The notes beneath the pieces were generated by a model, which was not told the origin of the DNA, ran no database searches, and saw only the letters and a list, made by a program, of their open reading frames with translations. This document shows, piece by piece, positions 1,258 to 37,237 of a stretch of DNA of 64,000 nucleotides; the stretch's first letter is position 1, and every line of letters begins with the position of its first letter. The position numbers were made by a program, and so were the translations under genes. The stretch comes from Amphiscolops sp. MND2022 (taxonomy: Eukaryota): contig OZ076409.1 of NCBI GenBank assembly GCA_964187785.1, positions 74,836,001 through 74,900,000 on the forward strand, written 5' to 3'.

Positions 1258-1310
1258 CATCAACGCCCACCGTCCGTGGGCATGCCGAGGCATGCCCTTC
1301 GACGACGTAT
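1258..1310 (+). other. Conserved subterminal motif, first of 26 copies: CATCAACGCCCACCGTCYGTGGGCATGCCGAGGCATGCCCTTCGACGACGTAT (9-bp hairpin at 1278-1297)
   Basis: Found about 20-40 nt upstream of 26 of the 31 CTRR junctions and almost invariant across otherwise divergent units. Confidence 0.92.
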
Positions 1311-15800: not shown

Positions 15801-18800
15801 ACTACAAGGTTTCATACCCATGATATGGTGCCTTCAGGGGGGCAAACAGATTTCCGCTATCTATCACCGTTACCGACTTGGCCCCCCAGCCTAACCGCTA
15901 TGTGACCGGAAATGTCACTTTTTGAGCCCAAAGGGTCGGTCCCAGCCGGGGAACGTTAGGTAACTTATTGTAGTACTCAATGAGACGAGTTGGGGATATA
16001 GTTTCAGTCACCCCCCGTTACCCTTTGGGACCGGAAATGACCGTTATGTGGGTTAAATTGCAATTTTTATACTTTTTCAAGTGTATTTAGGTGCGGAAGG
16101 CGTGGTAATAGGTGCTTGGACACTATATGATGATAGGGAGGACGTGAGGCGAGCATTAAAAAATAACCGTTATGTTGACCCCAAAGTCCCCCTGGTACCA
16201 GAAGTGACCCGTAACGGTCAAATTTTGTGTTTTTAGGGTACAAATGATTAGAATTTTATGGGAAAAAAGTACCTGGTCGGTGTTTCAACGGCTTGCCGTA
16301 GTGAACATAGTCCTGAAACCTTGTGGGGGGTAACGGTATATAGCACCGGAAGTCCAAACCGTTGGAGACAGGATAGGTATTTTGGTTTTAAAATGCCTAT
16401 AAGCGTACTTTTGTGGGTTGAATCGTTTCAATATCGACTAATTTGGATATTTTTTTGACATTGAAGGTTTTTTCAATAGTTTCAGGGACCTCCAATGCTT
16501 CAATCAATATAACCGTTACCTTATGATAGCCTTTCAAGTTGGCCTGGTGTCAACTTGGAAGGGCTATCCTTCGAAAATCGTAATTCAAGTGTGTTTTTGA
16601 GTACGTTTTTATTACTTTAATATCAATTAGAGCCTAATCATTAGTTTGCCAACGACAAAAACTATGACGTGATGATACCGTTAGTAGAAGAATAGTTAAC
16701 AATTTGTTGACAAAATTGATTTTTTGCATTTTAAATGTTTCCTAAATGCCAGGAAAACAATTTATCTAATGAATGGTACTGATTGAACCCAAGTATCATT
16801 TGAAAAAAAGTAAAACATTGTCAAAACGCTGAAACCTCACGTTTTAGGTCACTTAACGTCAACGCCACATACTTTACATCAACGCCCACCGTCTGTGGGC
16901 ATGCCGAGGCATGTCTTTCGACGACGTATACCAATTACATATATATCTACACCCACCCGCGGTAGCAGCTAGGTGCGGGGGGGTAACCCCAACAAATATA
17001 TTGGAGGATTCGGGTAGGGTCCTGAATCCGATTTTAACTCTAATAGCTATCGATAGGAAATCTTGCAAAAATTTCGGGATCTCGTGATCTAACCATAGGA
17101 TTTTAAAGTTGGAGCGGCCCCCACCAGATTTTCCGAAAATTAGCGCCCCCCACCGGGTTCCAGCGTGATTGAAATATTTTGACGGGGTACACGGGCGACC
17201 GTTAGGGGTCATTTTGGGGGTAAAATTTATATCCGGTCGCATAACTTTTTTTCTGTTGATTTAAAACTTTGGAACCCTGCTAAAAGTTTCTTGACCGTGT
17301 TGCAGGGGCCCCGAAGGTCCAAACCAAATTTTTCTATCTTGAAGCTATCTCCAAGTACCCCCCCGCTCAAACCGTTATTTTTCCGGAAACGCAGGTTTTT
17401 GACCCGGAAGGAGTCGTCTGAGCGCGGGGTCGTTAGGTGATGTATTGGGGACGGCCTTGAGACGAAGTGGGGGACAAGTAGTTTGCCAAACTCAATTTAC
17501 CCCCCGGACGGGAAATGACCGTTATATGAGCGTGTAAAATGCCCCCCCTCCACGTTTTACCGCTATTTCCGGTGTGAAGGAGTGGGAGTAGCGCGTCGGG
17601 TGTTATATAACAAAAGTAGGTTTAGACAAGGACCTATCGGAAACATGTAGTTTGGGACCCCCTGGACCAACCCGTTAGCGGGAAATGGGGCTTCCGCCTC
17701 CTTTTTTTAGTGCTAAAACCGTAAAATGGGCATTGAGGGGTAAATATCTCGTGAACGCGTGGAGCAATCGTGTCCATCACTACTACAAGGTTTCATACCC
17801 ATGATATGGTGCCTTCAGGGGGGCAAACAGATTTCCGCTATCTATCACCGTTACCGACTTGGCCCCCCAGCCTAACCGCTATGTGACCGGAAATGTCACT
17901 TTTTGAGCCCAAAGGGTCGGTCCCAGCCGGGGAACGTCAGGTAACTTATTGTAGTACTCAATGAGACGAGTTGGGGGATATAGTTTCAGTCACCCCCCGT
18001 TACCCCTTGGGACCGGAAATGACCGTTATGTGGGTAAAATTGCAATTTTTATACTTTTTCAAGTGTATTTAGGTGCGGAAGGAGTGGTAATAGGTGCTTG
18101 GACACTATATGAGGTAAGGGAGGACGTGAGGCGAGCATTCAGAAATAACCGTTATGTTGACCCTAAAGTCCCCCTGGTACCGTAAACGACCGGAAATGGT
18201 CAAATTTTGTGTCTATTGGGTACAAATGTTTTGTATTTTGTAGATAAAAGTATCTATTAGGTGTTTCGACGGTCTACAGTAGTGAACATAGTCATGAAAC
18301 CTTGTGGGGGGTAACGGTATATAGCACCGGAAGTCAAACCGTTGGAGACAGCTTAGGTTTTTTGGTTTTAAAATGTCTTTCGGCGTAATTTTTTTGACTC
18401 TTGTGGACTATTTTTAAAAATTAAAGTTTTTCCATATAGTTTCAGAGACTCCGAAACCTCAACCAACATAACCGTTACCTTATGATAGCCTTTCAAGTTG
18501 GCCTGGTGTCAACTTGGAAGCGCTATCCTTCTGAAATCGTTAATCAAGAGTGTTTTTGGGTAGGTATATATTGCATTAGTACCAATTAGAGCTTCATCAA
18601 CAGTGTATCAACGACAAAAACTATGCCGTCATGATTCCGTTATTAGAATCATAGTGAGCAAATTGTTGAAAAAATGGTTTTTTCCATACAAAATGTGTCC
18701 TAAATGCCAGGAAACCTATTTACCTAACAAATGGTATTAATTGGAATGTTTGTAACAGATTTATAAAAGTTCAAATTGAATATTACATTTCATTATGGAA

Positions 18801-21800
18801 GCTGAAACGTCATATTTTAGTTTAATTAACGTCAACGCCACACACTTTACATCAACGCACACCGTCTGTGGGCATGCCGAGGCATGCCCTTCGACGACGT
18901 ATACCAAATACAAACCCAAACGACGCCCGTACATCCCGGGCTAGGTGCGGGGGGGTAACCCCAACAAATATATTGGAGGATTCGGGTAGGGTCCTGAATC
19001 CGATTTTAACTCTAATAGCTATCGATAGGAAATCTTGCAAAAATTTCGGGATCTCGTGATCTAACCATAGGATTTTAAAGTTGGAGCGGCCCCCACCAGA
19101 TTTTCCGAAAATTAGCGCCCCCCACCGGGTTCCATACCCCGGAAAATTTTTTTCTGGCCACACGGGCGACCGTTAGGGGGTCATTTTAGGGGTAAAATTC
19201 ATATTGGGCCACATAACTTTTTTTCTGTTGATTTAAAACTTTGGAACCCTGCTAAAAGTTTCTTGACCGTGTTGCAGGGGCCCCGAAGGTCCAAACCAAA
19301 TTTTTCTATCTTGAAGCTATCTCCAAGTACCCCCCCGCTCAAACCGTTATTTTTCCGGAAACGCAGGTTTTTGACCCGGAAGGAGTCGTCTGAGCGCGGG
19401 GTCGTTAGGTGATGTATTGGGGACGGCCTTGAGACGAAGTGGGGGACAAGTAGTTTGCCAACCTCAATTTACCCCCCGGACGGGAAATGACCGTTATATG
19501 AGCGTGAAAAATGCCCCCCTCCACGTTTTACCGCTATTTCCGGTGTGAAGGAGTGGGAGTAGCGCGTCGGGTGTTATATAACAAAAGTAGGTTTAGACAA
19601 GGACCTATCGGAAACATGTAGTTTGGGACCCCCTGGACCAACCCGTTAGCGGGAAATGGGGCTTCCGCCTCCTTTTTTTAGTGCTAAAACCGTAAAATGG
19701 GCATTGAGGGGTAAATATCTCGTGAACGCGTGGAGCAATCGTGTCCATCACTACTACAAGGTTTCATACCCATGATATGGTGCCTTCAGGGGGGCAAACA
19801 GATTTCCGCTATCTATCACCGTTACCGACTTGGCCCCCCAGCCTAACCGCTATGTGACCGGAAATGTCACTTTTTGAGCCCAAAGGGTCGGTCCCAGCCG
19901 GGGAACGTTAGGTAACTTATTGTAGTACTCAATGAGACGAGTTGGGGGATATAGTTTCAGTCACCCCCCGTTACCCCTTGGGACCGGAAATGACCGTTAT
20001 GTGGGTAAAATTGCAATTTTTATACTTTTTCAAGTGTATTTAGGTGCGGAAGGAGTGGTAATAGGTGCTTGGACACTATATGAGGCAAGGGAGGACTTGA
20101 GGCGAGCATTCGGAAATAACCGTTATGTTGACCCTAAAGTCCCCCTGGTACCGTAAACGACCGGAAATGGTCAAATTTTGTGTCTATTGGGTACAAATGT
20201 TTTGTATTTTGTAGATAAAAGTATCTATTAGATGTTTCGACGGTCTACAGTAGTGAACATAGTCATGAAACCTTGTGGGGGGTAACGGTATATAGCACCG
20301 GAAGTCAAACCGTTGGAGACAGGATAGGTTTTTTGGTTTTAAAATGTCTTTCGGCGTAATTTTTTCGACTCTTGTGGACTATTTTTAAAAATTAAAGTTT
20401 TTCCATATAGTTTCAGAGACTCCGAAACCTCAACCAACATAACCGTTACCTTATGATAGCCTTTCAAGTTGGCCTGGTGTCAACTTGGAAGCGCTATCCT
20501 TCTGAAATCGTTAATCAAGAGTGTTTTTGGGTAGGTATATATTGCATTAGTACCAATTAGAGCTTCATCAACAGTGTATCAACGACAAAAACTATGCCGT
20601 CATGATTCCGTTATTAGAATCATAGTGAGCAAATTGTTGAAAAAAATGGTTTTTACCATACAAAATGTGTCCTAAATGCCAGGAAACCTATTTACCTAAC
20701 AAATGGTATTAATTGGAATGTATGTAACAGATTTATAAAAGTTCAAATTGAATATTACATTTCATTATGGAAGCTGAAACGTCATATTTTAGTTTAATTA
20801 ACGTCAACGCCACACACTTTACATCAACGCACACCGTCTGTGGGCATGCCGAGGCATGCCCTTCGACGACGTATGACAAATCCTTATCAAACGACGCCCG
20901 TACATCCCGGGCTAGGTGCGGGGGGGAAACCCCATCCCTTATCTTGGAGGATTCGGGTAGGGTCCTGAATCCGAGTTCAGTGCCGCCAGCTCTCAGTAGA
21001 AATCTGGGAAATTTTTTGCGATCTCGTGATCTAACCATAGGATTTTAAAGTTGGAGCGGCCCCCACCAGATTTTCCAAAGTTATTCGCCCCCCACCGGGT
21101 TCCAGCGTGATTGAAATATTTTGTCGGGGTACACGGGCGACAGTTAGGGGTCATTTTGGGGGTAAAATTTATATCCGGTCGCATAACTTTTTTCCTGTTG
21201 GTTTAAAACTTTGGGACCCTGCTAAAAGTTTCTTGACCGTGTTGCGGGGGCTCCGGAGGTCCAAACCAAATTTTTCTATCTTGAAGCTATCTCCAAGTAC
21301 CCCCCCGCCCAAACCGTTATTTTTCCGGAAACGCAGGTTTTTGACCCGGAAGGAGTCGTCTGAGCGCGGGGTCGTTAGGTGATGTATTGGGGACGGCCTT
21401 GAGACGAAGCGGGGGATATATAGTTTGCCGACCCCAGTTTACCCCCCGGACGGGAAATGACCGTTATATGAGCGGGAAAAATGCCCCCCTCCACGTTTTA
21501 CCGCTATTTCCGGTGTGAAGGAGTGGGAGTAGCGCGTCGGGTGTTATATATCAAAAGTAGGTTTAGACAAGGACCTATCGGAAACATGTGGTTTGGGACC
21601 CCCTGGACCAACCCGTTAGCGGGAAATGGCGTTTCCGCTTCCTTTTTTTACTGCTAAAACCGTAAAATGGGCATTGAGGGGTAAATATCTCGTGAACGCG
21701 TGGAGCAATCGTGTCCATCACTACTACAAAGTTTCATACCCATGATATGGTACCTTCAGGGGGGCAAACAGATTTCCGCTATCTATCACCGTTACGGACT

Positions 21801-22096
21801 TGGCCCCCCACCCTAACCGCTATATGACCGGAAATGTCACTTTTTGAGCCCAAAGGGTCGGTCCCAGCCGGGGAACGTTAGGTAACTTATTGTAGTACTC
21901 AATGAGACGAGTTGGGGGACATAGTTTCAGTCACCCCAGTTACCCCTTGGGACCGGAAATGACCGTTATATGTGTAAATTTGCAATTTTTATACTTTTTG
22001 AAGTGCATTTAGGTGCGGAAGGAGTGGTAATAGGTGCTTGGACACTATATGATGATGGGGAGGACGTGAGGCGAGCATTCGAAAATAACCGTTATG
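3893..22096 (+). repeat. ~1.97-kb unit family, 8 full and 1 partial near-identical copies, interrupted by one 1265-bp unit (9780-11044)
   Basis: Long blocks recur nearly verbatim, e.g. GGAGTGGGAGTAGCGCGTCGGGTG and GATAGCCTTTCAAGTTGGCCTGGTGTCAACTTGGAAG. Units 13016-14994 and 14995-16972 are virtually identical. Confidence 0.93.
5424..5467 (+). other. Long hairpin type H2 (GATAGCCTTTCAAGTTGGC-loop-GTCAACTTGGAAGGGCTATC), example copy
   Basis: ~19-bp stem with G-T pairs, present in the full-length ~1.97-kb units and in the ~1.39-kb units (43347-43389, 48601-48643, ~49970-50012). Confidence 0.88.
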
Positions 22097-22296
22097 NNNN
22101 NNNNNNNNNNNNNNNNNNNNNNNNNNNNNNNNNNNNNNNNNNNNNNNNNNNNNNNNNNNNNNNNNNNNNNNNNNNNNNNNNNNNNNNNNNNNNNNNNNNN
22201 NNNNNNNNNNNNNNNNNNNNNNNNNNNNNNNNNNNNNNNNNNNNNNNNNNNNNNNNNNNNNNNNNNNNNNNNNNNNNNNNNNNNNNNNNNNNNNNN
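22097..22296. other. Assembly gap (200 N)
   Basis: Run of exactly 200 N; the true length is unknown. Confidence 0.99.
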
Positions 22297-25200
22297 ATCC
22301 GTGATGACTTTACAAAACCTTTAATACTGTTGGAGAAGTTTAAAATTTCACCTTGTCTGGTAAATAATGAAAACGGTTTGCAGTTAGTTACATGTAGCGA
22401 CCACAAAAATGGTGTCAAATTGAAGTATGTTCATGTTCCAACCAACCCAGCAACAGGTAATGTTAGTACACGGTCTGCAGACAGGTTAGCTTTAATGGTG
22501 TCAAGTGTCCGAACGGTAAGACCTTTGAAAATAGGTACTAAAAGTTGTACTTTTACAATGTGTCGCGTTGACAGTGGACGCATCAGCGGTGTGAGCAGTA
22601 CTGTTCTCCACAAGTTCCGTAATTTTGAGACTCCCCCTACAGATCGTTTGGTTGAAATCGAAAAACTCATGATTAACTGTAGAAATGATGTCAAAGATAT
22701 TATAAGACAATGCTGTGGAAACTTTGAAATAAGTAAGGGTTTAGCCGAGTATTTTCTTGCTGTAGAGTCACCTGTAAGTATTTCTACCATTGAAGAAAAT
22801 TGTAAAAGTGCTGTCGTGTTTGACATGGAATCATTGATGAGAATGAAAGACTACGTGGAAAGTTGCCCTGAAGATGTAACAGATCGGGATCTTGCTTTGG
22901 CGCCATTGCTTTTAGGTCACAAGCTTGACGGTTACGGATGCGAGCCTCGATCTGTATCGAAAAGAATTTCTGAAAATTGCGACTTGTTTCCCTTCGTTTA
23001 CGCCTTTATCACCCAGGATTCGCTTTGGTCAAAACTTCTAAAATTAACTTCTGTTAATGAAAATTTCCAACTTTTGTGTAAATCTCTCTACAGATTTCGT
23101 GAGTACATTTGGTGTCGTAATAATTATAGCCTCCCAACAGTGTTGCGCAACTTCGAAGAAGTCTTCACTGCACTATTTCCGGCTGGTTCTAACCCTTTGA
23201 GCAACTTAGTAGAGACTTTAGAAAACTGTAGCGTTTTAACTTGTCAAAGAAATGAAGTGAATAACGTTAGTATTGACTGTACGCGGTTTGACACGCTCCT
23301 TCTTGTGGCGACTGGTTCGAATAATCGGGATTTGCAATTGCCTTTTGAATTGACTTCCAGTAACGGGACAACTTTTTATTTAACTTTTGTTAGTACTGAC
23401 TCAACTTTAAGTCTCCGGTATGGACCTCCGTTTTATGGATTCTGGACTGTTAAAAACGACGGAAGTAGACCTTTAAAAGATCCAACTTTAGAGTATCAAT
23501 ACAACAGGAACTGGAAATACTTGTTATATGTATCTAAAAGTGACTTGAACGAGGAAACTAAACTGCGATACTTGAAATACATGGGAGGACAAGGTGTCTT
23601 TTTTTGTCAAGAACATGTAAAACCGTTATCAACTGATTACTTAAACAGCAATAGGAAATGTAGCATGCCCAAAAATACCGGTGTTTCACAAATTTGTACA
23701 CGAAAATCTGCGTGGCGGTGTCCGGAAAAAGACTGTTTTGCATCCGTTTGTAAGACTCATTTCCGAGAATTTTGCGATACGAACGACCGAGTTAACGTTG
23801 ATAATGCGCCGTCTACTGATGCCATCCAAGATAGCAGTGATGAAGAAACAGAGTTGCTAAAGGACGTGGATGAAGAACCGGATGTCAATCAACCTGGACC
23901 GAGCTTTGTACTGGATAACCCTCAACGATCCCAAGAAGAACAAGAGGTCAACATGGACGAGTTTGATTGTCCGCAATTGATAGTTGATGCCGGATTTCAA
24001 GATACGGATGCGTTTGCGACGGACGCTGGCTGTGAGCCCGTTTATCTTTCGAACGACTCTAAATTTGTTCCAATGCATGTACTTTTAAACGGCGAATGCC
24101 AACTGATGAAACGTTTAAGGTACCCTAAGCATATAGGTAAAAGATTCCAACGCTACTTCCAGAACTTCGTTTCAACTTTGCCTGGCAAGTCGATACCTTT
24201 GCTTCAACCAGAAGCTTGTTTGTTTCCAAGCATTTTTTATAAACAGCTAGAGGATGGCTCTTTTCCTGGGGCTCTGCCCTTTTTTCTCTACGACGATAAA
24301 AAAGCAAATTCAAAATTGGACTACGACGGTCTGCATGAACATTTGCGGGTGAGACTTAAAGACGCGACTCTTTTAACTTCAGCTAATTTGTCTTACATTA
24401 TGTACGCGTTCGACAGTGTTTTGAATTTGTCGTTGACGAAATGCCACACCAACCAGTTCTTCAAACGTGGCTTACAGACAATCTCCATTGGTAAGTATAG
24501 ACCGCGGCAACTGACATCAACGGAATCTGTACTTAAAATGGATAGTGTAGACAGTGACGTGCATGTAAATAGGTTAGGTACTGCCTGTGCTTCCGAAACA
24601 CCCGATCTTTTTGTAACGTTCACATGTAATCAAAAAGAACACCCTGGAGTCGCCGAAGTTGTTCAGGCAATTTATGAATTGTACGGCAGTGCTCCAGTCG
24701 AAGAACTAAAAGACGTGCTCCAAGCATACATGGTGATTATCGTAAGATGCTGGACCAGGACGATCGAATTGCTAATTGATTACTTAAGGTTTTCTGATGA
24801 ACATATTTTGGGTGAAATTTTGAAGGTTTGGGGTAGGGCTGAGTTCCAGAGTGCCGCAGCGAATTTACAACACTACCACATACTGTTTTGGTTGAAGAAT
24901 CTTGTAGAAGATGTTTTAGAGAAAATTGCCTGTGCTCACAAACATGTGTTTCACGAGTTCAAAAAACTTTTTCATGTCAATTTTGGTACCGTTGATAGCG
25001 CTGAACACGCAGGTGAGTTGTTTGACAAATGTGTTCGCGTGCAAACTCACGACTGTGAGAAAGGTCACTGCTTGAAAAAGGTAAGGTTTGATGGAGAAAG
25101 AAAATGTCGTTTCCCACCGTACCCGCAGAGTCATGAACCATGGTATAAGGAGTTTCACCAGCCGCATTCAAAAGAAGCCTTGGAAGCCCTACAGGAAATT

Positions 25201-28200
25201 GGGTTGGCCGAACCGCGGCCTGGTTATTTCAATGAATTGCAGGTAACCTCTGTTTTGAAGGCAGGTAAATACATGTACGCTGCTCAGAGGGGTGAGCACA
25301 TGTCTCCTTTGAATGTTGCCTTGTGGAGCATCTGCAAGTCGAGTTTGAATGTTCTAAAAGTTTGCAAATCAGTGGCCTCCCGGTATTTAACATCATATGC
25401 CGCGGGAAAGGAAGAGCATGCTGACGTTTCAATTAACCCTGATAATGCTCACAATGTCCTAAATGTGCAAGTCCAAAAAATTGAAAACAAAAAGTTAGGT
25501 GGTGTTCGGAAAATTCTTGCTCGAGAGGCTAAACAGGAAAAAACTCAAGGTATTATTGATTCTACTACTATTGCAAGTACAGAATGTGTGTCGTGGATGT
25601 TACAACTTCCTACGGTAATAACAACAATGGATTTTGTTTCGGTTCCTACAGTGTCGCTTGAAAACCGCGGCGGTGTACTTTTAAAACGAAAAAACAACAC
25701 TCAGTCGAGAGCTAATGTACCCGGTGTAGCAAATGAAGGTCCTGCGGAAATTAGACAACATCATCTGCATTTTCCCCGTCATAGACTTTTCACAGGTGGA
25801 CAAAAAATTGTTATAGAAAGTGTGAATAAAACTAATTTTAGCACTGATAAAGTAACTGTTTTCTCTTTACGTCCTCCAGAATTGCTGTTTGTGAATAAAT
25901 TGAAATTGTATTACAGGTGGTTCGTTAGAGAAAAATTACCCGGTAAAAAAGAAACAATCTGTGTTAGGTTTTTGAAAAATGATGTTAAAGATTCAACCTG
26001 GGTGGATGGTGAAAATTATGCCATTCGATTGAGACCTTGCGCTGTTGGTGAATTTTCAAACTATGTTCAGGAATGTTTACTTACAACTCCAGCCGATGAC
26101 AGCCTTAATGACGCTTGGCGTGTGATCACTGAAGTTTTGAATGTTGCTTCACACCAAAATCGTTCTTTTTTCGTTTCTGCAGACCCCAATTTGTCAAACA
26201 CTCCCGCTGAAGTTGTGTTTTCTAAAGTTTATCCTCGAAGCCCGGCGAACTTTTTGATTCACTTTTTGCTTTCAAATGCTTGTTTTGAAACAGAACTAGA
26301 ACTTTTTGACGTGCCAACACTAAAAGATGCTTATATCAAAGGTAAAATCGTTCCCGACAAACAGGTTTTTGACACTGATGATTGCAATGAACTTTTGAAA
26401 AAGTACGTTTTGGAACAGCTTCGATACTTACCAGGTGGCACCAGATCTTTTGATGGTAACGTATTGGCTGCAAAATCTGCATTTAAAGGAATGTTGATAG
26501 ATAACGACATCTACAACGAAGGTCTTCCCATAACGACAATGGATACTTTGACTGAAGCATTAGAAGACAAAGCGAAAAAAATGCTTCGACAGTCCCAAGT
26601 AAACATAATAAAGTCGTTGACTCAAAAAAATTTACCAAGTTTTCCGTCTTCAGCTGACTTTGAAACAGTTACGAAAGAAACACCTTCGAATTGGTCAGCT
26701 GAATTGATAGCTAATGTTTTTCAATCCGCTGAGTCGCTACAAGAACAGTCGTTAATTTTAGAAACTCTAAAAAATTTGATTACTGACATTTTGTTTTCAG
26801 GTCACAAGTTTAATAAACATCAGCTAATTTTAGGTCCCCCCGGCACTGGTAAGACTTACGTGTTAACAATGGCTTTAGGTTTTGCTCTGTCGAAAGGTTT
26901 GTTTTGTCTTGTGACAAGTCTTGCATCAAGAAGATCGATGCACTTTGGCGGTGAACATATACATAAACTGTTTTGTTTGCCCCCGTGTTCGAAAGGCTCG
27001 CCAATCAAAATGGCTGAGCAGGCACTGACAAAACTGGATCACAGAAATGACAAGAAGATGCTCCTCCTGGCTTTGGAAGTGCTGTTCGTGGAAGAGGTAA
27101 GCTTGATAAGCGCCGAACAGTGGTCTGCTATGGACATAACACTTCAGGAGTTGAAGCAGTCAACTTTGCCTTTCGGTGGCGTTCTGGTAATTGCGAGTGG
27201 AGATCAGATGCAACTACCCTCCATCGACGGCAATGACATCTTCCTTAGTCCCGTTCTGTTGACAAACTTTGCGTTGTTTTTTCTCGGACATTTCGTTCGG
27301 ATGACTGATCAAGCTGGTCAAACTGTGCTTCGTCACATGTGGAAGCGTCCGATTAATCCTGCCGCTGTCGCTGAAATTTTGTCCATTTTGGATGCCAAGT
27401 GTACGTTTAAAGACAGTTGGGCGGATCTCCGCGACCAATGTGTCATGCGTGTTTTCGGAAAGCGGAAAGCCGAGCAAAGGGAGTTCGATAGTCACATTGA
27501 GCGAGTACGCGGCTCCGGAAATCCGTTTAAGATCTTTGAAGCTACGGACGAAATCTGTCTTAGTAAAAGCTCTGTTTGGAACGTAACCGAATCAACTCAG
27601 GTAAGTAACCACTTGAACGATAAGGTGAATGAGCCGAAAAAGTTGATAGTTTACAAGAAAGCTCTTGTGAGGGTAACCGTCAATTTGGAAAGCGAGCAGT
27701 TGTCTCAAGGTCAGGTAGGTGTAGTCCACGAGGTTCCCACCGGTGACTCGGTCACGGTGTACATCCCTGACACCAGTGGTGGAGACGTTGACATCACTCA
27801 GGCGATGCTGGACAACGAGGAGTACCTAAACTGGCGCTCAGTCACCCTTACGAGACACACAGGGTTTGTGCAGCCGTTCAGGAAGAATTCGATTCGCAGA
27901 ACGCAGATTCCTTTGATGAATAACGTTGCGATGACCGTGCACAAACTAATGGGTGACACGTTCGACAAGCTGGCTACGTCTATCTCGGCAACCGACAGCA
28001 GCTATGCCTTGTGGATGACGTCTCAAGTTTTCGTAATTGTGAGTCGGGTGAAGCAACTGAAAAATCTCACGTTTGTCGGAAACAAGTCAGCTACGTTGGA
28101 CGCAATAAGATTGATTTTTGAAACTAGGGACTTGCGAGAAGAGCGTCTTTTCAGGTTGTTAGATCAAATTCGGAACAATTCAAGATCTGGTTCCATTGTT

Positions 28201-28620
28201 CAACCAATCGATGTTACACAGATGTCCTATGTCCCGTTCAACAAAAACATTCCGCGATCTCCAACTGGTTTCGTGTATCTTTTGACAAGCCTAAACCCAA
28301 CATCGCCCGAAACTTTTTACGTTGGCCAAACAGAGCGCGCCTTGTTGACACGTTTGTCTGAGCATAATTGTGGAAACGGCTCGGAATTTACAAAATCGCC
28401 GCACCGGTTGCCTTGGGCCGTCGCTGCATTCATATGCAATTTTGACTCGAAATTTTCTCGCCGTGATCTCGAACAAGAACTTCATCGAGAAATGTTTGTA
28501 CGCCGCAATCGTTTGAAAACCCTGAATGACATGATCGCCCTTTTCCAAGAGAAAGTTTCTGATTTGAACTGCGGCCTTCATTTTTGCGTGTGCGGTGAGT
28601 ATCGGGCTACTTCAAGTTGA
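22297..28620 (+). CDS. Helitron-type Rep/helicase transposase with C-terminal GIY-YIG endonuclease domain (5'-partial, begins at assembly gap)
   Basis: Uninterrupted frame of 2107 aa plus stop after the gap. Rep motif I PDLFVTFTCN (24601), motif II WGRAEFQ..LQHYHILFWL (HYH 24871-24879), motif III RYLTSY (YxxxY, 25384-25398). PIF1-like motifs: GPPGTGKT (26833), GGEHIHKLF, LFVEEVSLIS, FGGVLVIASGDQMQLP, QIPL..AMTVHKLMGDT, QVFVIVSRV. GIY-YIG-like GFVYLL..FYVGQT..RLSEH (from 28267). Cys/His cluster CQEH..C..C..CPEKDC..CKTH near 23600-23760. Confidence 0.92.
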   Translation: MRDDFTKPLILLEKFKISPCLVNNENGLQLVTCSDHKNGVKLKYVHVPTNPATGNVSTRSADRLALMVSSVRTVRPLKIGTKSCTFTMCRVDSGRISGVSSTVLHKFRNFETPPTDRLVEIEKLMINCRNDVKDIIRQCCGNFEISKGLAEYFLAVESPVSISTIEENCKSAVVFDMESLMRMKDYVESCPEDVTDRDLALAPLLLGHKLDGYGCEPRSVSKRISENCDLFPFVYAFITQDSLWSKLLKLTSVNENFQLLCKSLYRFREYIWCRNNYSLPTVLRNFEEVFTALFPAGSNPLSNLVETLENCSVLTCQRNEVNNVSIDCTRFDTLLLVATGSNNRDLQLPFELTSSNGTTFYLTFVSTDSTLSLRYGPPFYGFWTVKNDGSRPLKDPTLEYQYNRNWKYLLYVSKSDLNEETKLRYLKYMGGQGVFFCQEHVKPLSTDYLNSNRKCSMPKNTGVSQICTRKSAWRCPEKDCFASVCKTHFREFCDTNDRVNVDNAPSTDAIQDSSDEETELLKDVDEEPDVNQPGPSFVLDNPQRSQEEQEVNMDEFDCPQLIVDAGFQDTDAFATDAGCEPVYLSNDSKFVPMHVLLNGECQLMKRLRYPKHIGKRFQRYFQNFVSTLPGKSIPLLQPEACLFPSIFYKQLEDGSFPGALPFFLYDDKKANSKLDYDGLHEHLRVRLKDATLLTSANLSYIMYAFDSVLNLSLTKCHTNQFFKRGLQTISIGKYRPRQLTSTESVLKMDSVDSDVHVNRLGTACASETPDLFVTFTCNQKEHPGVAEVVQAIYELYGSAPVEELKDVLQAYMVIIVRCWTRTIELLIDYLRFSDEHILGEILKVWGRAEFQSAAANLQHYHILFWLKNLVEDVLEKIACAHKHVFHEFKKLFHVNFGTVDSAEHAGELFDKCVRVQTHDCEKGHCLKKVRFDGERKCRFPPYPQSHEPWYKEFHQPHSKEALEALQEIGLAEPRPGYFNELQVTSVLKAGKYMYAAQRGEHMSPLNVALWSICKSSLNVLKVCKSVASRYLTSYAAGKEEHADVSINPDNAHNVLNVQVQKIENKKLGGVRKILAREAKQEKTQGIIDSTTIASTECVSWMLQLPTVITTMDFVSVPTVSLENRGGVLLKRKNNTQSRANVPGVANEGPAEIRQHHLHFPRHRLFTGGQKIVIESVNKTNFSTDKVTVFSLRPPELLFVNKLKLYYRWFVREKLPGKKETICVRFLKNDVKDSTWVDGENYAIRLRPCAVGEFSNYVQECLLTTPADDSLNDAWRVITEVLNVASHQNRSFFVSADPNLSNTPAEVVFSKVYPRSPANFLIHFLLSNACFETELELFDVPTLKDAYIKGKIVPDKQVFDTDDCNELLKKYVLEQLRYLPGGTRSFDGNVLAAKSAFKGMLIDNDIYNEGLPITTMDTLTEALEDKAKKMLRQSQVNIIKSLTQKNLPSFPSSADFETVTKETPSNWSAELIANVFQSAESLQEQSLILETLKNLITDILFSGHKFNKHQLILGPPGTGKTYVLTMALGFALSKGLFCLVTSLASRRSMHFGGEHIHKLFCLPPCSKGSPIKMAEQALTKLDHRNDKKMLLLALEVLFVEEVSLISAEQWSAMDITLQELKQSTLPFGGVLVIASGDQMQLPSIDGNDIFLSPVLLTNFALFFLGHFVRMTDQAGQTVLRHMWKRPINPAAVAEILSILDAKCTFKDSWADLRDQCVMRVFGKRKAEQREFDSHIERVRGSGNPFKIFEATDEICLSKSSVWNVTESTQVSNHLNDKVNEPKKLIVYKKALVRVTVNLESEQLSQGQVGVVHEVPTGDSVTVYIPDTSGGDVDITQAMLDNEEYLNWRSVTLTRHTGFVQPFRKNSIRRTQIPLMNNVAMTVHKLMGDTFDKLATSISATDSSYALWMTSQVFVIVSRVKQLKNLTFVGNKSATLDAIRLIFETRDLREERLFRLLDQIRNNSRSGSIVQPIDVTQMSYVPFNKNIPRSPTGFVYLLTSLNPTSPETFYVGQTERALLTRLSEHNCGNGSEFTKSPHRLPWAVAAFICNFDSKFSRRDLEQELHREMFVRRNRLKTLNDMIALFQEKVSDLNCGLHFCVCGEYRATSS

Positions 28621-28820
28621 ACATCGTAAAAGCTAAAAAGTAGGGGAAGCACATAGTTCTACTCTGATAGTGAACGTGTGTTGTTCTCCACATTAGGTTT
28701 TAAAACAACATGTAATTTTGTGTAAAAATGTAAAAGTAGGCACTGTAGGATATCGCACAAAGTTCTACTACACAGGATGGACACCGTGCGATACTCTGTT
28801 TGTTCACTGTAGGTTAGTTT

Positions 28821-28951
28821 GCTGGAATCGACGGAGAGCGTGGTTCCAGGTAGGTTTATATTAGGTTACTTAGCTGGAATCGACGATGAGCGTGGTTCCA
28901 GGTAGGTTTAAATTAGGTTGGTTTGCTGGAATCGACGATGAGCGTGGTTCC
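28821..28951 (+). repeat. 52-bp tandem repeat, ~2.5 copies (core GCTGGAATCGACGATGAGCGTGGTTCC)
   Basis: Core starts at 28821, 28873 and 28925; a further isolated copy lies at 33510-33535. Confidence 0.9.
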
Positions 28952-29638
28952 GGAAATGCTCAATCAGAATAAAAAAATTCATTTAGGTTTTGAAACATCA
29001 TGTAGCTTCGAGGTATGTTGCCCTTTTGAGCCATCTGCCTCTTAAAACTAGAACTTGAAGTAACCTTCATTCTATTTTTCAAGTGTATCCTTGTGTGTTG
29101 CCCTTTTGAGCCATCCGCAATGATACACTTCTTTTTTTTTGAAAATGGAGGTTAACCTGGTAAAAATGACAGCGATCCAGTTGAAGAAGAAGACGATGAA
29201 GAACGATGTCGCGGACAGCAGACGATGGTGCAGCTGAAGCAGAGCAGATGATGACGATCTAGAAGCAAGACCCCAGTGTAAAAGCTTGTGTAGCCCTTTT
29301 GAGCCTTCCAAGCTTATACACTAAATATAAAAATGAAAGTCTTAACAAATATAACCAGTGTGGCAGCACGTGTAGCCCTTCTGAGCCTTCCGTGCTGAGA
29401 CACTCTCCTTAATAAAAATAGGTCGAGAAATTCTAAAATCGGAATTATTAGACCAAAACATGACTTCCCTAAAACTGACTTTTTTCTACTTCGGACTTTT
29501 TGACTAAAAGACTCCAAGACTGAGACTTAATTGACTTTTTTCTAAAACCTAACCGTCCTTTTTCCTTACGTAGTGAGAATGAGTGGAGTTGAGCATTGAG
29601 ACGTTTTTGGATACATTCAAACTAGTGTTTATACCAGA

Positions 29639-30120
29639 GCGTCCAGATGAAGAAGAAAGAAGATTCGGAAGATGAGAATAATTAATATGTATAATAGTAA
29701 TAATTATAGTAGTTGCGTCCAGATGAAGAAGAAAGAAGATTCGGAAGATGAGAGTAATTGATATTTATAATAGTAATATTTATAGTAGGTGCGTCCAGAT
29801 GAAGAAGAAAGAAGATTCGGAAGTAGAGAATAAATAATATTTATAATAGTAATATTTATAGTAGGTGCGTCCAGATGAAGAAGAAAGAAGATTCGGAAGT
29901 AGAGAATAAATAATATTTATAATAGTAATATTTATAGTAGCTGCGTCCAGATGAAGAAGAAAGAAGATTCGGAAGATGAGAGTATTTGATATTTATAATA
30001 GTAATATTTATAGTAGGTGCGTCCAGATGAAGAAGAAAGAAGATTCGGAAGTAGAGAATAAATAATATTTATAATAGTAATATTTATAGTAGGTGCGTCC
30101 AGATGAAGAAGAAAGAAGAA
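29639..30120 (+). repeat. 76-bp minisatellite, ~6.3 copies
   Basis: GCGTCCAGATGAAGAAGAAAGAAG starts at 29639, 29715, 29791, 29867, 29943, 30019, 30095. Confidence 0.96.
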
Positions 30121-30311: not shown

Positions 30312-30971
30312 ATGACAATGAACAGCCCAAGCGTCGTAATTATTGGAGCAAGTAACCTGGTGTCGAAGAAGAAAGAGCCCCTTGAAGCCTGTAACTGTTT
30401 GACTCCCGAATGCACGAGAAAAGACGAACACCTTACGAACCTGCCAGAGAATTCAACATTTCAAATTTTTGCTCAACCAGGGGCTAAAATAAACCATCCG
30501 AATGAAGTCAAGTCTGCCGAAACCTTGTTCAAAAAAGCTCTAGCACTCAGGCCCAAGACCATCGTTTTTTACATGGATATTATAATGAATTCCTTGACTA
30601 GTCCTCCCTGGTTGCCAAATTTACCTGTTTTGAGTCCACAAGAAGTTCTACGAAAATTGTTTGTTTTTGAAAGAAAAGCTAACGCCCAAGATATTAAGTT
30701 TGTTGTTGTTTTATGTAGGCGAAGGAAAGAGGATAAGCTAAAACTGCAACCTGGAACGTCACGTCAGCCTGGAGATGCACCCTTACCATTTGACTCCGAT
30801 TCAACTCTTGACAATGAAATGAATACCTTACTGAAAGAAAATTTTTTTTACTATAGTGATTTAAAACTCTCCAATGCAGCCTTCAAGATCAACGATTCAG
30901 CTCATCAGACTCAACTTTCACTCAATTTGTCCCTTGGGAAAATTATTCGTTTTTTTAATAAGGACACCTAA
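30312..30971 (+). CDS. SGNH/GDSL-hydrolase-fold protein (219 aa), accessory gene of the element
   Basis: Motifs in SGNH order: block I-like VVIIGASN, block II-like IFAQPGAKI, block III-like VFYMDIIMNSL, block V-like INDSAH (DxxH). A pyrimidine tract plus AG directly precedes the ATG. Confidence 0.7.
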   Translation: MTMNSPSVVIIGASNLVSKKKEPLEACNCLTPECTRKDEHLTNLPENSTFQIFAQPGAKINHPNEVKSAETLFKKALALRPKTIVFYMDIIMNSLTSPPWLPNLPVLSPQEVLRKLFVFERKANAQDIKFVVVLCRRRKEDKLKLQPGTSRQPGDAPLPFDSDSTLDNEMNTLLKENFFYYSDLKLSNAAFKINDSAHQTQLSLNLSLGKIIRFFNKDT

Positions 30972-32055
30972 TTCACTTGCTCTGTCAGTTTAAGCGCTTT
31001 AGCGTCTTAAACTGACCCCTTTTCCTCTCTCTTTTCTTCTTTTCCGCCTTTTTCTTTTTAATAGGGTTCTGGCGACGTGGAAGAGAAGGAGAGGAAACCT
31101 GGCCTGCTTGCAGGATTGCCAGCTGTCTTCGCGGAAATTGTTGTGCCTGTCTACGTCCTTGCCGCAACTTGGACCCGAAGCAGCTGTCTCACAAATCAAA
31201 AACAAAGAAATTCCAAAAAAAATCATAAAACTTCAAAAAAACCCCAAAAAAAAACAAAAAAACCCATAAAAACCAAAAAAACTTAAAACAAAAATATAAC
31301 CAAAACCCCCAAAAAAAACAAAAACTCAATTCAGAGAAATGCACAAACAAACGAAAAACCAGAAAACCTTAAGACAAAACTCGGAAACATATCTTACCAA
31401 AAGTGAAATCTCAAAAATCCTAAAACCTTGAAAAGTAGAGCAAAACTTTCCAAAAAATCCTTACAACTTAAAAACTATAAAACTTTCTTGTTTTCCAACT
31501 TTTTTCTTTTGCACTCTGTCTAAAGAGAATATTAACACTTTTAGTCTTTATGTAACGATTCCAATTTTATTTGTGAAGTAAATACTGTCAATTAAAATTT
31601 TTTCGTTAAAAAGTCTTTTGACATAAAAAAAACAATTTTCGAGTATTTTTTCCTTGGAATCCTACTTTCTAAAATTCACATGTTTGCTTAAGCTTCTTCA
31701 TACCCTGCATTTTCTTTACTGTTTGAGGATTCCACTATAAATTTTTTTTGCCCATTCCGAACTCAGCAGATACATGTCCTAATTTTCATTGAAGTTTGCC
31801 TTTGGTTCAATGCCTTTTGTTTTTTAAGCTCCTTCAAAACTCTCAAATACATGCGAAAAAATGTTTTTAGTAGAAAAAAAATGAAAAAAATCCTAACGAG
31901 ATGTCCCCTGGAGAAGATTCCAGCACTGTTTGTGTATCAACAGTTCGGTAATGGGTCTACAATGAAATTTAGGTTAACCTCCATTTTGTATTCGTATGGT
32001 CTTTTACTCTTGGAATGTGAAAACTGAAATTTTTGGTTGCTTTTCCAGATTCAAA

Positions 32056-33129
32056 ATGCCCGGTTTCTTGAAGGCAAATCTAAGCGAAGCCCAGGCTCAA
32101 AGTCTCCTGTGTAGGTTTACTCAAAGTTCAGTCGACGAGATAACCAGCGGCGAACCCTCGTCTCGACTGTATAGACTGTCTGCCGTGCTGTTATATGTAA
32201 CACAGCCGACAAGAAAGATTTCATTCAATAAACAAACCAAGAATTTTGGGTCTCGCAAAATGGAGGTGGACAAATACCACCGGTTTGTGGTATTTGGTAT
32301 CCCAGGTACAACAACTATAGTGGCGATGTTTTCGCCCAATAGCGAAGAGTCGCGTCGACTCTTCAGGTACAACATCGGACCGGGTAGCCATGTTCAAATA
32401 TTGAAACCGACCTTGGAAGGTCAACTGTCCAGAGGTGGCAGTTGCCTCATTTCAACTAAGGAGCCGTTGGTACCCTCCATCGAGCCTAACGATGACATTA
32501 CTTTACCGCCCTACGACGTGGAAGGAAGTTGTATCGAATTCCGGTACTTCAGTTTTGTCACGAAAAATCTATTGGTCGACAGTGCGGTGATTGCGGAGAG
32601 TGTGTGCCCAGGTAAGCTTTGCGACGGGCAAACTTACCACGAAAATTGCCCCTGTCTGGAAACATCACAGACAAAAATTTGGAACTTATTGTTCGACTTG
32701 AAATGCCCAGAAATGAGCAATAATCACTCCGAGATAATAAGCTTTTATTCTAACGAGACAACGGGGTACTTCGTGACGCCAGCGACACGAAAATTGAAGG
32801 GCGATTCCGACCGAATAGACAGGTTCGATCTGGATAATTCTGTACAACTGTTGGTGCAATCTGTCAATGAAACGTGTGGATTCAGAGTCTCCGGCTGGTT
32901 CAAACCAGCGATTGATGAAGAGGGGACAACGCTTGAACATAAAAATTTTCACGTCTGCTCATTGAAACCTGAAAGTCCTTTAACGTCTGAACAGGAAGGA
33001 CTGAAATACAGCACCGAAACGACGTCAACTGGTGCTTCAGCTGTTACAGCCGAAACAGGCTCAGATCCAACTCCGAGTTCAAATGCAACTGCACCTCCGG
33101 ACTTGACTGCGGCCCCGGATACACAATGA
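32056..33129 (+). CDS. Unknown protein (~357 aa from MPGFLK; ORF open from 31996), Cys-rich motif, possibly OB-fold/ssDNA-binding accessory protein
   Basis: Long ORF with protein-like composition, motif CPGKLCDGQTYHENCPC, beta-rich-looking N-terminal half and S/T/P/A-rich tail. TTTTCCAG acceptor-like site at 32041-32048 just before ATG 32056. The function is inference only. Confidence 0.65.
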   Translation: MPGFLKANLSEAQAQSLLCRFTQSSVDEITSGEPSSRLYRLSAVLLYVTQPTRKISFNKQTKNFGSRKMEVDKYHRFVVFGIPGTTTIVAMFSPNSEESRRLFRYNIGPGSHVQILKPTLEGQLSRGGSCLISTKEPLVPSIEPNDDITLPPYDVEGSCIEFRYFSFVTKNLLVDSAVIAESVCPGKLCDGQTYHENCPCLETSQTKIWNLLFDLKCPEMSNNHSEIISFYSNETTGYFVTPATRKLKGDSDRIDRFDLDNSVQLLVQSVNETCGFRVSGWFKPAIDEEGTTLEHKNFHVCSLKPESPLTSEQEGLKYSTETTSTGASAVTAETGSDPTPSSNATAPPDLTAAPDTQ

Positions 33130-33466: not shown

Positions 33467-35879
33467 AAAATTTGAAGACATGTACTCTGATTACATCAGC
33501 CTCATTAGGTGGAATCGACGATAAGCGTGGTTCCACTTTTCTTTTTTTGAAATCAAGTATAATAATGTAACGACAACCCTTCCGCATTCTCTAACATCAT
33601 TAACCACTCATTAACCTTTCAACCGACACCCGACTGACGACTCTTCTCCAATCACGTAAGTAACTACTTTCATATTTTTAACACTCTCCTGCCTACTGGA
33701 ATCTTCGTTTTGCCGTCCACGTCTAGGTGGTCACGAGTATACTCTACAACGGTATTTGCGAGGTGGGGGAGGGGCCCCGAGTCCGAGCCTCCTGTCAGAT
33801 ATCTATCTAGAGTGAGGGGTCCAGAAAAACAGCGATTTTGGAATTGAGCCATACGATTTGAATGAAACTTTGTGTGTAGGTAGATCTCAAAATTATAAGA
33901 ACTTTTTCCCCCTGGCAAAACATGGTTAAAAATCGAAAAGTTGGTCAAAATCACTATTTTAGGTGCCGAAAATGGCGTTTTTTTGAAAAAAAAATTTTTA
34001 AGAGCCAATATCTCGTTCCACAGGCCCCGGATCAAAAAGTGTACAATTGTTTGCACGTTAGGCACTTCATGAACTGTCCGTAGACAAATTTTCGTCCAGA
34101 TCGGATAAAAATTGACTGAGTAATAGCCGGAATTCTGACGCATTTTGTCGACATTTTTCGAAAACCTAGTCTATCTCTGCCATTTTTTGCCCAGATTTTT
34201 TTCCAGGACCTCTCCTAAAGGCCTCCCCTGGCCGGTTTACCTCCCAGAGAAACCATTTGGCCCTTTTGCCGCAGTTTCAGCGTTCCAGGATTCCCCGGGT
34301 AAAATTAAAATGACTTAGAATTTTTTCGAAAAATTTTCAAAAAAAAAATTTTTTTCTTCAGGCCTCCCAAAGTCAGGAAACGTCCACACAACTAGTATTG
34401 CAAGTGAATGCATGTGGAAAGTGCTCGAATAGACGAGAAAAATGAGCTATTATAAACCTCTGTAGCTCAACCTGACGTTGACTTATGACAATTTTAGTGT
34501 GAGCTTGCTATGTGAGAAAAAATTCCGAAAATTGAAAATCGAAGCTAAGTCTCATCCAAAACTCATCGGAATACGTTCAATCCATATCAAAGCGGTTTGT
34601 TCCCAGTTGTAGAGTGCAGCAACACCATTCAAGGTCATTTGACCCACTTTAATAGGTTTTGACTTTGTCTTATCCATCCGAAAATTCGAAACAGTTAAGT
34701 ACATTCCATCTCCCCTCCGTGGGAGATGGTAATGTACTCGCAAAAAGCCAAGTATAACCGCCCTATTCTACCCGTAGTGGTGCTAGAAGAGCAGTAGCGT
34801 GAGCTCCAGGTTTGCAGTAGTCTCTATGTGTTATAATTATATTTTTCATAGCTAAAAATCTTACTAAACGTGATAAAAAAATTACATCACTCAAAATTTT
34901 TTCAAATATTATTATATGTCCCCAATTGACGCACGTCAACTATTTCACTACAACCACCCTACCACCCGGCCCCTCGTATCTTTGTTCAACCGTACACGTC
35001 TAGGTGGGCGGGGGTAATTCCCCAACAAAAAAATCGGCCGGCGGGTCGGGTCCTGCCGGCCGTCCAAAATCAAAATCCTCCTAGTAGAAAACGGCATGTC
35101 AAACGAGCTATTTTTTTATTTAACCATACGAATTTCACCATTTTTTGCATGCGGCCCTGAAATGGCCATACGAGACGAAGTTCCTGCTGACGTTTTGCGA
35201 TGTAAATGTTTTATAAAAAGTTATGGCCGATTTGTCATTCACCTAGAAGGGTAAAGTGAGGAAAATTTTAACAAAGTCGCTGATAACTCAAAATGTGGTA
35301 ATTTTTGGACTTTGACTGTGAAACAAGCTTGGAACCTTCATTTCGTGGCTGGGGCATTGGATTGAACACAAAAGATGTAAAGTTTTTACATTTTTTGAAA
35401 ATTTGACATTTTTGAAATTTTTTTCACTACTATCAGTACCATATATGTCAAAAACACCTCAGAAAAAAATTTTATTTGCTTTAACTTGGAAACCTTGGTA
35501 TCCATGGTTTCTGTCGGAACCTACTCGCAACCAAACAACCAACAGTTTGCATCCAATGTGAAAATAAAAAATTTTTCTGGGTCATAAGCGTTTCACAAGG
35601 ATTTCTCAACTTAGTATTAATTTACAAAATGGTCATTTTGAACACAATATTTTCATCGAGGCTTGTCGGCTATAGCCTTAATGTTCTAGAACGGTCCCAC
35701 TGGCAACGTAGGAACCATTTATAGTAATAGAAAGTTTAAAAAATATATTTTCACCCTGTTTTCAGTCATTTTTCAGTCATTCGGAACTTAACTTAGAAAA
35801 ATTTCGACCAAAATACCCATTTTTTGACAGATCGAAAATTCAAATTCAACTTTTTAAGCAAAATTAGTAACTCTGACGT

Positions 35880-36920: not shown

Positions 36921-37237
36921 AAGAAGTTAATATTCAAAATCTCTTTGAAAGGTTTCTTTAGGTTGGGGTGAAGTGTTAGAACAATAGTTATGATCGAAGA
37001 ATGATAGTATTGGTGTTTGGACCATGTCCGGATGAACAAATTGCAAAATCATGAAAAATTTCTTACCATTTTTGGTCATTTTGTCAGTACTAAAAATGTT
37101 AGCTGAAAAAGAATTTTTTTGATGGCACCATTGGATTCCTCTCAAAAAGTTAGCTATATGAACTGTGTAATAACCCCGTATCTTTTCAATTTAAATAATT
37201 TTAAAAAGCAAACTTTTTTGACTAAAATCCTAAAAAT

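Follow-up and report, generated by a model that had tools for sequence, protein, structure and literature searches.

The coding element and its transposase

The window, that is, the whole stretch of 64,000 nucleotides that was analysed, holds one coding element between two arrays of repeat units (Table 1). The element's largest gene is an open frame that runs from 22297 to a stop at 28620. The initial annotation had described it as a Rep-helicase fused to a C-terminal GIY-YIG endonuclease, and the open frame, the quoted GIY-YIG motifs (all of which are there), and the Pfam, profile and fold matches agree with this description. One point needs correction: position 22297 is no start codon, but directly follows a gap of 200 N. 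Because of this gap, the left end of the coding element and its contact with the left array are unseen. The closest copy, P0002, has an N-terminus that is 249 aa longer, with 61 mismatches across the common part; these extra 249 aa were searched for in the window and were not found.

Table 1. Features of the window (positions count from its first letter)
Feature	Position	Strand	Remarks
Left array	25..22096	+	13 junctions; units of 1.27-1.3 kb and, in one run, of 1.92-1.99 kb
Unit of 1265 bp within the 2-kb run, from a different family	9780..11044	+	flanks match empty junction at 18941
Assembly gap, 200 N	22097..22296	.	hides left end of coding element
Transposase ORF, RepHel-GIY-YIG	22297..28620	+	2107 aa readable; 249 or more N-terminal codons lost to the gap
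HUH-Y2 Rep domain	24592..25410	+	Pfam PF14214; motifs aligned with those of HLE1 and Helentrons
Pif1-family SF1 helicase, Walker A to motif VI	26815..28071	+	
SLX1-like GIY-YIG nuclease core (predicted)	28267..28482	+	Pfam, profile, AlphaFold/Foldseek
Internal minisatellites	28810..30119	.	52 bp x2.7; 76 bp x6.3
219-aa ORF	30312..30971	+	
Conserved second gene	31978..33129	+	ATG at 32056, 357 aa; conserved cysteines
Right end of coding element, CTAG-GTG junction	33723..33729	+	array unit comes next
Right array	33727..64000	+	mixed families, 1.27-4.8 kb units, one orientation
Left-end hairpin, example	33752..33791	+	AGGG loop, covarying stem
Subterminal core of ~52 nt, example	39670..39725	+	perfect hairpin

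Within this single ORF, an HUH-Y2 Rep domain with motifs 1-3 lies upstream of a Pif1 helicase, which is the arrangement by which the superfamily is recognised. Motif 1, HUH motif 2 and the motif 3 tyrosines (Y1030 and Y1034) were identified; motif 2 has a 2-residue insertion that is typical of the GIY-YIG lineage in an alignment against HLE1 and Helentrons. The corresponding Pfam matches are Helitron_like_N (aa 766-863, 38.8 bits) and PIF1 (aa 1510-1643, 43.8 bits).

The C-terminal domain is, judged by sequence and predicted fold, an SLX1-type GIY-YIG domain, and its nuclease activity is a prediction. Pfam GIY-YIG matches aa 1991-2062 at 25.5 bits (cutoff 22.6), and a scan restricted to the last 139 aa raises the score to 30.4 bits (E 4.9e-7). 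A profile made from 22 tail sequences matches Slx1 (E 1.4e-14), HIGLE (E 6.5e-13) and UPF0213 (E 4.9e-7). The AlphaFold model has a mean pLDDT of 83, and its seven Foldseek matches at E<=0.001 are all Slx1 or HIGLE; I-TevI and Hpy188I are far down the ranking (E about 1). Both the GIY-YIG fold and the catalytic Tyr, Arg, His and Glu of the SLX1 type are found, and Y1994, Y2008, G2010, R2019, H2023 and E2059 are invariant in 22/22 aligned tails. The SLX1/UPF0213-type assignment had been proposed together with these checks, which uphold it. Among 164 GIY-YIG domains, all six catalytic positions are intact in 121, and at least one catalytic residue is gone in 43; the multi-copy family P0015 has lost the catalytic Arg and Glu. 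The protein stops about 45 aa past the core, and no separate DNA-binding module was detected in it.

Of the two genes that follow, the 219-aa ORF has no homologue among the fetched loci and is possibly cargo. An SGNH-like identity, suggested by eye, was dropped, as neither Pfam nor PDB gives a match in its support. The second gene has homologues in 14 of the 18 loci that extend at least 1.5 kb beyond the transposase stop. Its fold matches RPA70, CTC1, LEF-3 and MCM10, and the predicted product is an ssDNA-binding protein (SSB) with tandem OB folds.

Spread and phylogeny of the fusion

At E<=1e-30, the helicase-nuclease region is matched by 256 clusters (50% identity). Of 188 homologues extending through helicase motif VI, 167 have the GIY-YIG fusion and 21 have no detectable GIY-YIG domain; the fusion is found in none of 120 Helentrons and none of nine HLE1 fragments. 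In each tree a single branch separates the lineage from the other sequences, with SH-aLRT values of 100 (helicase) and 99 (Rep). RepHel is separate from the sampled HLE1 sequences (8 Rep, 3 helicase) and, on a separate long branch, falls outside the 8 sampled Helentrons, which are of one type. It is important to consider that the trees come from a quick search with a long-branch warning, and that their references are narrow, leaving out Helitron2, FoHeli, proto-Helentron, HelenSM92 and HELIANO subgroups a, c and d.

Rep cross-scores are higher against Helentron than against HLE1 (median 40 versus 11 bits), and the match to Helraiser reaches no more than 26.9 bits, less than the matches to cellular Pif1 proteins. 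Pfam scans at E<=0.01 detected an OTU domain, N-terminal in most cases, in 7 of 16 family proteins, and DUF6570 in none of the 16; the latter is present in Helentron P0066. Three scans of viral contigs found no relatives, and no HLE1 motif was found in such contigs.

On the evidence of these comparisons, the lineage is deep-branching among Helitron-like elements and marked by the GIY-YIG fusion; the Rep and helicase trees set it apart from the sampled HLE1 and Helentrons, as expected from the earlier proposal of a distinct Helitron lineage. The literature searched, which lay outside Repbase and subscription papers, does not describe the fusion as a lineage. Standard profiles give the lineage weak scores, and it is probably under-annotated.

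Array junctions and their possible origin

The window is a same-strand, head-to-tail array with 31 junctions between CT(A/G)G and GT(G/A), and its units belong to 17 families. CTAG occurs at 29 junctions and CTGG at two; all 31 go on as GT(G/A), and all lie on the plus strand, as does the ORF. A left-end hairpin is located 37-47 nt past 29 of the 31 junctions. This combination of junction and hairpin was found 29 times on the plus strand, never on the minus strand and never in any of 50 shuffles, and the hairpin's covariation score (0.352, versus 0.163 for shuffled sequences, with 0/500 as high) exceeds that of every slid control. The ~52-nt core lies close to the right end of 26 of the 29 complete units. 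Subterminal or asymmetric inverted repeats were not found in these 29 units, where the longest end-to-end complement has a mean of 5.9 nt (5.8 nt when shuffled).

The core is missing from the right end of the coding element, its hairpin was not found there, and only the terminal CACGTCTAG is common to this end and three unit ends. Because the 3' flank also has no BLASTN similarity to array units, this copy may not be the direct mobiliser of the units. Separately, contigs from sequencing runs, compared at 85%, contain related cores joined to different tails, and in one contig the match begins at the 50319 junction, which is a hint; the best runs contain 5-6% of words, and X2 and X3 are probably one data set.

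A single filled/empty pair was detected (9776-11041 versus 18941). The left 45 nt and right 300 nt that flank the filled unit match the empty junction at 97.8% and 100%, and the breakpoint falls inside 8 nt, CTAGGTGC. No extra bases are seen in this pair, but the donor joint and the target have the same junction sequence. A crossover in the 52-nt core is made less likely by the tail, which goes with the upstream unit. The pair could be a deletion rather than an insertion.

We lean slightly towards the view that the window contains a coding copy of the deep-branching RepHel-SLX1-like lineage, and that the nearby repeats are probably non-autonomous relatives of this copy that probably use existing CTAGGTG junctions as insertion sites and so build mixed head-to-tail arrays. 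The Rep domain is likely to take existing junctions as targets, and the SLX1-like domain is likely to trim branched intermediates. In such a process, Rep would recognise the left-end AGGG-loop hairpin and nick within CTAGGTG, after which the helicase would peel off one strand, to be coated by the element's OB-fold protein. On the model of Helraiser, the strand would be nicked again at the next CTAG, closing a circle whose joint would read CTAGGTG and then the hairpin. A genomic junction looks like this circle joint and, for that reason, would serve as the target, with orientation fixed and no duplication. The SLX1-like domain, presumed structure-selective, would trim or resolve the branched product and would be dispensable in some families. 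Direct support exists for the domain order, the lineage-wide fusion, the conservation of junction and hairpin, and the one filled/empty pair.

The main alternative, which we consider unlikely, is that the arrays are rolling-circle concatemers that went through unequal crossing-over and then diverged in place, with no targeting and an irrelevant nuclease. Tandem arrays are indeed reported for Helitrons without GIY-YIG in PMC5876387, PMC5148889 and PMC11934779. Such turnover is visible in the window: the 2-kb run resembles the product of tandem amplification, and unit 43694 is a mosaic of 39763 and 41030, which indicates internal recombination between units. Moreover, 13 units of 1265-1288 bp have a median identity of 65.5%, resembling an old satellite. 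However, the 17 families are interleaved, and members of a family differ in their neighbours, with homology that stops at the junction; for example, the similarity of units 42318 and 48928 is 92% within the unit but 49% and 55% beyond it, and their neighbours are unrelated. The precise placement of one unit in an otherwise empty junction also speaks against concatemers.

The initial annotation had offered two options, that the nuclease may cut the target junction or may resolve branched or hairpin intermediates, and had suggested that such an activity could explain the arrays. The first option, a sequence-specific, homing-type enzyme that nicks CTAGGTG junctions and thereby targets insertion, would be in keeping with the near-invariant junction, with the retention of catalytic residues at 20-30% identity, and with the AP endonuclease that Helentrons have at the same position, which is hypothesised to guide target choice (PMC4067079). 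We nevertheless judge this explanation quite improbable, since the nearest solved relatives, Slx1 and HIGLE, are structure-selective and not sequence-specific, the short extension past the core has no detected DNA-binding module, and P0015 is without Arg and Glu. A causal role of the nuclease in the arrays is put in doubt by the 43 domains with a missing catalytic residue, and Rep alone can explain the junction specificity.

Least probable is that the repeats are a tandem locus of the host, such as small-RNA genes or a centromeric satellite, targeted by this Helitron, comparable to R2 in rDNA or Paramecium Helitrons in telomeric repeats: the highly conserved core with its hairpin and compensatory change, its absence from the coding element and the near-constant unit length would suit such a locus, but there is no Rfam match (whole window at the gathering score; 40700-41200 at E<=1), the left-end hairpin also occurs beside distant transposase homologues, and two units have a second, diverged core without CTAG after it, as after end bypass.

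These distant hairpins, weak recurrences in non-coding flanking DNA and on the coding strand, were found at three independent loci (4 of 47 related loci in all). L003 (E 0.019) and L017 (E 0.33) match by score, and L010/L011 by pattern only; at dG<=-5 there are three matches, versus 0-2 in 30 shuffles. The L017 hairpin is just 3' of the SSB gene, as expected for the left end of a next unit. CTAGGTG was not found directly upstream of these hairpins, where only nTAG occurs 34-49 nt upstream (a weak resemblance). In the 20 loci of at least 7 kb, which include 9.5 kb upstream in L025, no tandem array of 1-2 kb units was seen. Short-read contigs tend to end at arrays, and the contigs of the distant homologues are short. 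At least 27 cross-family pairs share a contig among 11 protein clusters, with up to 15 listed members each; in two groups, 20 and 7 such pairs were observed, where 5.6 and 0.9 are expected for a 200-Mb genome, and 22 and 3.5 for a 50-Mb genome.

A wider claim, which we put forward tentatively as falling somewhat short of probable, is that of an undescribed major clade, ranging from diatoms to this host, with its own kit of RepHel, SLX1-like resolvase, OB-fold SSB and AGGG-loop hairpin, which uses its own end junction as a specific integration site and so forms ordered, cassette-like, multi-family arrays. If junction targeting is true, it would show how transposons can give rise to kilobase satellite arrays, and the lineage would also be a candidate for a site-specific integration system whose target is short and defined.

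Comparison with known systems

Tools and reviews for Helitrons distinguish two clades, and a third was recently reported in Paramecium. Helentrons (HLE2) likewise have the order Rep, Pif1, nuclease in one ORF, OTU in some members, and a separate ssDNA-binding gene. The present lineage differs from them in having GIY-YIG instead of a C-terminal AP endonuclease, in its lack of subterminal inverted repeats and T-T ends, and in its lack of DUF6570, which is an HLE2 marker (PMC11417382). That the GIY-YIG domain occupies the Helentron AP endonuclease position, as initially annotated, is consistent with PMC4067079 and with a weak Exo_endo_phos match (aa 2216-2361) in P0066. It would be a second, independent nuclease at that position. 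Because natural versions exist that are predicted, from catalytic residues, to be active or inactive, the role of a nuclease at this position is testable. Slx1 and At-HIGLE, the best profile and fold matches, align with the transposase tail at the catalytic Tyr, Arg, His and Glu; they differ in that their RING domain was not detected in the transposase, where the GIY-YIG domain is part of a fusion.

Within HLE2, GIY-YIG is reported as a captured domain in HelenSM92 of Sphagnum magellanicum, which has short TIRs and TT sites (PMC11417382); this Helitron-like family was compared by its description, which does not state a fusion. 'HLE Paramecium', also compared by description, has ORFs of 3052-3592 aa, CCAA ends (CTAG here) and a telomeric repeat target (PMC13085455). 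It is a clade outside HLE1 and HLE2, as the present lineage is outside the sampled members of both, and resembles it in strict orientation, inferred target specificity and abundant, here putative, non-autonomous copies; GIY-YIG is not mentioned in that paper or in those of its supplements that were examined.

Hairpins at both ends, the mark of Helitron2, are present in the array units, the right end of the coding element excepted. HLE1 elements, e.g., Helraiser, share with the window a CTRR right end (here CTAG or CTGG, with the cut placed only to within CTAGGTG), a subterminal hairpin in most units, RPA-like cargo and, apparently, no target duplication. In contrast to HLE1, the left end is GT (or TG) and not TC, a left-end hairpin is added, and a 5' TC end with an A-T target is absent at all 31 junctions. 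According to PMC5876387, Helraiser precisely cleaves its own end-to-end junction.

A transposase fused to an SLX1-like nuclease

The fusion of a RepHel (an HUH-Y2 Rep and a Pif1 helicase in one ORF) to a GIY-YIG domain is genuine and, as the initial annotation had claimed, the nuclease is C-terminal: the reading frame is uninterrupted, and Pfam domains occur in the order Helitron_like_N, PIF1 and GIY-YIG, with GIY-YIG scoring above its curated cutoff. The ORF's start coordinate is set by the edge of a 200-N gap, and P0002, the closest copy in the protein set, has an N-terminus longer by 249 residues, none of which was found in a search of the window. The coding element's left end is therefore hidden; its right side runs uninterrupted into the array.

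The proposed SLX1/UPF0213-type affinity was also upheld. In a profile search of the PDB, the C-terminal domain matched Slx1 best (E 1.4e-14), then HIGLE, then UPF0213 proteins. With the predicted model (pLDDT 83), Slx1 and HIGLE were the sole structural matches at E<=0.001, and UvrC, I-TevI and Hpy188I appeared only near E 1. Tyr1994, Tyr2008, Gly2010, Arg2019, His2023 and Glu2059 do not vary across 22 aligned domains that are 20-30% identical to the window. In a wider set, 121 of 164 domains keep all six catalytic positions. Among the 43 that do not is P0015, from a cluster of 34 members, several with full-length ORFs. In most families the domain appears to be catalytic; some families seem able to do without it. 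Past the nuclease, P0220 has a Ulp1-type protease (aa 2483-2661) and P0177 a weak OTU match (aa 2335-2375); several lineage members have an N-terminal OTU domain.

A widespread Helitron-like lineage

The fusion marks a Helitron-like lineage that is deep and widespread, has distinctive ends and conserves an SSB gene. A word-index search found 65 homologues, just one of them a Helentron (E 2e-5), and an exhaustive search using the C-terminal 628 residues as query found 256 clusters at E<=1e-30, the best 150 of which were listed. We examined 206 family proteins, using profiles built from family members; GIY-YIG directly follows helicase motif VI in 167 of the 188 that extend through this motif, and in none of 120 Helentrons and none of 9 fragments of canonical Helitrons (HLE1). 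Many of the 21 exceptions end a few residues past motif VI, for which an intron may be the cause; one such subgroup (P0020-P0031 and P0148) may have an intron ahead of the nuclease or may truly have lost the domain.

Quick maximum-likelihood trees each recovered three long-branched groups with support of 98-100 (helicase: 18, 8 and 3 rows; Rep: 19, 8 and 8 rows), although both are unrooted, one carries a long-branch warning, and rows missed by the motif cut and other subgroups of HLE2 (the Helentron group) are not included. These trees separate the lineage from the sampled Helentrons (relatives of P0066) and HLE1-type ORFs (from prokaryotic genome bins), and, within these narrow references, they and the fusion counts bear out the suggestion of a distinct lineage. 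DUF6570, an HLE2 marker according to PMC11417382, is absent from all 16 members scanned. The 18 contigs with canonical HLE1 Rep motifs that are filed as prokaryotic bins (L048-L065) are likely eukaryotic contamination, but one of them, L048, belongs to a 363-kb contig labelled Actinomycetota. Many lineage loci are of metagenome origin, some labelled marine; hosts are mostly unrecorded, with Bacillariophyta the commonest phylum in one Atlas neighbour cluster (only 4 records).

Homologues of the second gene lie close to the transposase in 14 of the 18 loci that reach at least 1.5 kb beyond its stop, in both orientations, and upstream in one case. Sequence searches of Pfam and the PDB gave no match for the product. 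Its predicted model (pLDDT 70) resembles the OB-fold ssDNA binders CTC1, RPA70 and LEF-3 (E<0.001) and MCM10 (Z 10.2, rmsd 4.0, 117 aligned); Atlas gave POT1, CTC1 and MEIOB clusters at a sub-threshold recognition value.

The 309 kb of 47 lineage loci contain two matches to a covariance model of the left hairpin (the AGGG-loop hairpin after junctions): one in L003, 1.8 kb upstream of its ORF (E 0.019), and one in L017, on the downstream side of the SSB gene (E 0.33). Further matches, in L010/L011 (E 4) and on the minus strand of L025 (E 9), came from a pattern scan and from searching 17 long loci without filters. The three independent pattern matches, all with stable stems, fall in non-coding flanks and on the coding strand, vs 0-2 in 30 shuffles. 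These matches lend modest support to the hairpin as an element end across the whole lineage. Unit arrays were not seen in the 20 loci that span at least 7 kb, for which short-read assembly could be the cause. L025 also has a 177-bp direct repeat (93%; 9147-9323 and 17867-18040) on both sides of the transposase gene, an SSB homologue and zf-MYND ORF 2-6 kb upstream, and hairpin-like motifs on the minus strand at ~18.9-19.3 kb.

The array and its origin

Positions of features in the window
Feature	Position	Remarks
Transposase ORF	22297-28620 (+)	start at gap edge
Second gene ORF	31978-33129	predicted OB-fold ssDNA binder; homologues near transposase
Coding element right end	junction 33723	
1265-1288 bp units	junctions 1341, 2617, 9776, 33723, 39763-46253, 50319, 51589, 55051, 56320	
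25-31 nt repeat	28870-28951; 33505-33535	just past transposase stop; near element right end; accessory ORFs between
Diverged second right-end cores	54745-54825; 62541-62621	no CTAG after; ~230-300 bp upstream of normal core
4.76-kb unit	35004-39766	normal ends; inside, tandem repeat of 336 bp x4 (37233-38584) plus further unrelated sequence

The plus strand has 31 junctions of the form CT(A/G)G|GT(G/A), 29 of them followed after 37-47 nt by the left hairpin; the remaining two units share a different hairpin. A junction followed by the left hairpin occurs neither on the minus strand nor in 50 shuffles, and stem covariation exceeds both controls, with the structure derived from the same sequences. 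Near the right end, 26 of 29 complete units share a conserved core that forms a perfect hairpin, after which come a variable tail and then CTAG. The diverged second cores resemble a bypassed terminus. The 29 units form 17 families at 85%, and 13 keep a length of 1265-1288 bp despite only 60-94% identity (median 65.5%); further length classes lie near 1390, 1975 and 2185 bp. The coding element's 5.1-kb 3' flank has neither the core nor BLASTN similarity to units; all it has in common with them is CACGTCTAG, present at three unit ends.

Two observations point to the junction as the breakpoint: units 42318 and 48928, with 92% identity inside, have unrelated neighbours, and the flanks of unit 9780-11044 match the empty junction at 18941 (97.8% over 45 nt, 100% over 300 nt). 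In this one window, arraying was likely targeted to junctions. Helraiser makes end-to-end junctions on its plus strand and cleaves them precisely (PMC5876387). If the circle joint here comprises CTAGGTG and the hairpin, any genomic junction would also be a Rep substrate, which would explain orientation, precision and mixing without an extra nuclease. The branched product would most likely be processed by the SLX1-like domain; Slx1 cuts branched DNA, according to published abstracts.

Mosaic units and a homogenised 2-kb run argue against a purely insertional history; concatemers with unequal crossover are a rather unlikely source of the array, given the junction breakpoints. The earlier suggestion that the nuclease could explain the arrays gained no support over targeting by Rep, which could account for the pattern without it, and a homing-type role is improbable. 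A host tandem locus is very doubtful.

Comparison with published elements

Neither a RepHel-SLX1-like fusion lineage nor insertion at element junctions is described in the available portions of PMC11417382, PMC13085455 or its supplements, PMC3627910, PMC4067079, PMC8788227, PMC5148889, PMC5876387, PMC11934779, PMC13404089, PMC6431247, PMC5718144, PMC12910113 and 10.64898/2026.09.17.752431. The same portions report one Sphagnum HLE2 family with TIRs that captured a GIY-YIG domain (PMC11417382 and preprint), and a third clade in Paramecium with telomeric repeats as its likely target (PMC13085455). Lineage members may be among HELIANO's unclassified clusters, its supplementary tables and Repbase entries. 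The second gene of this lineage parallels the RPA cargo carried by other Helitrons.
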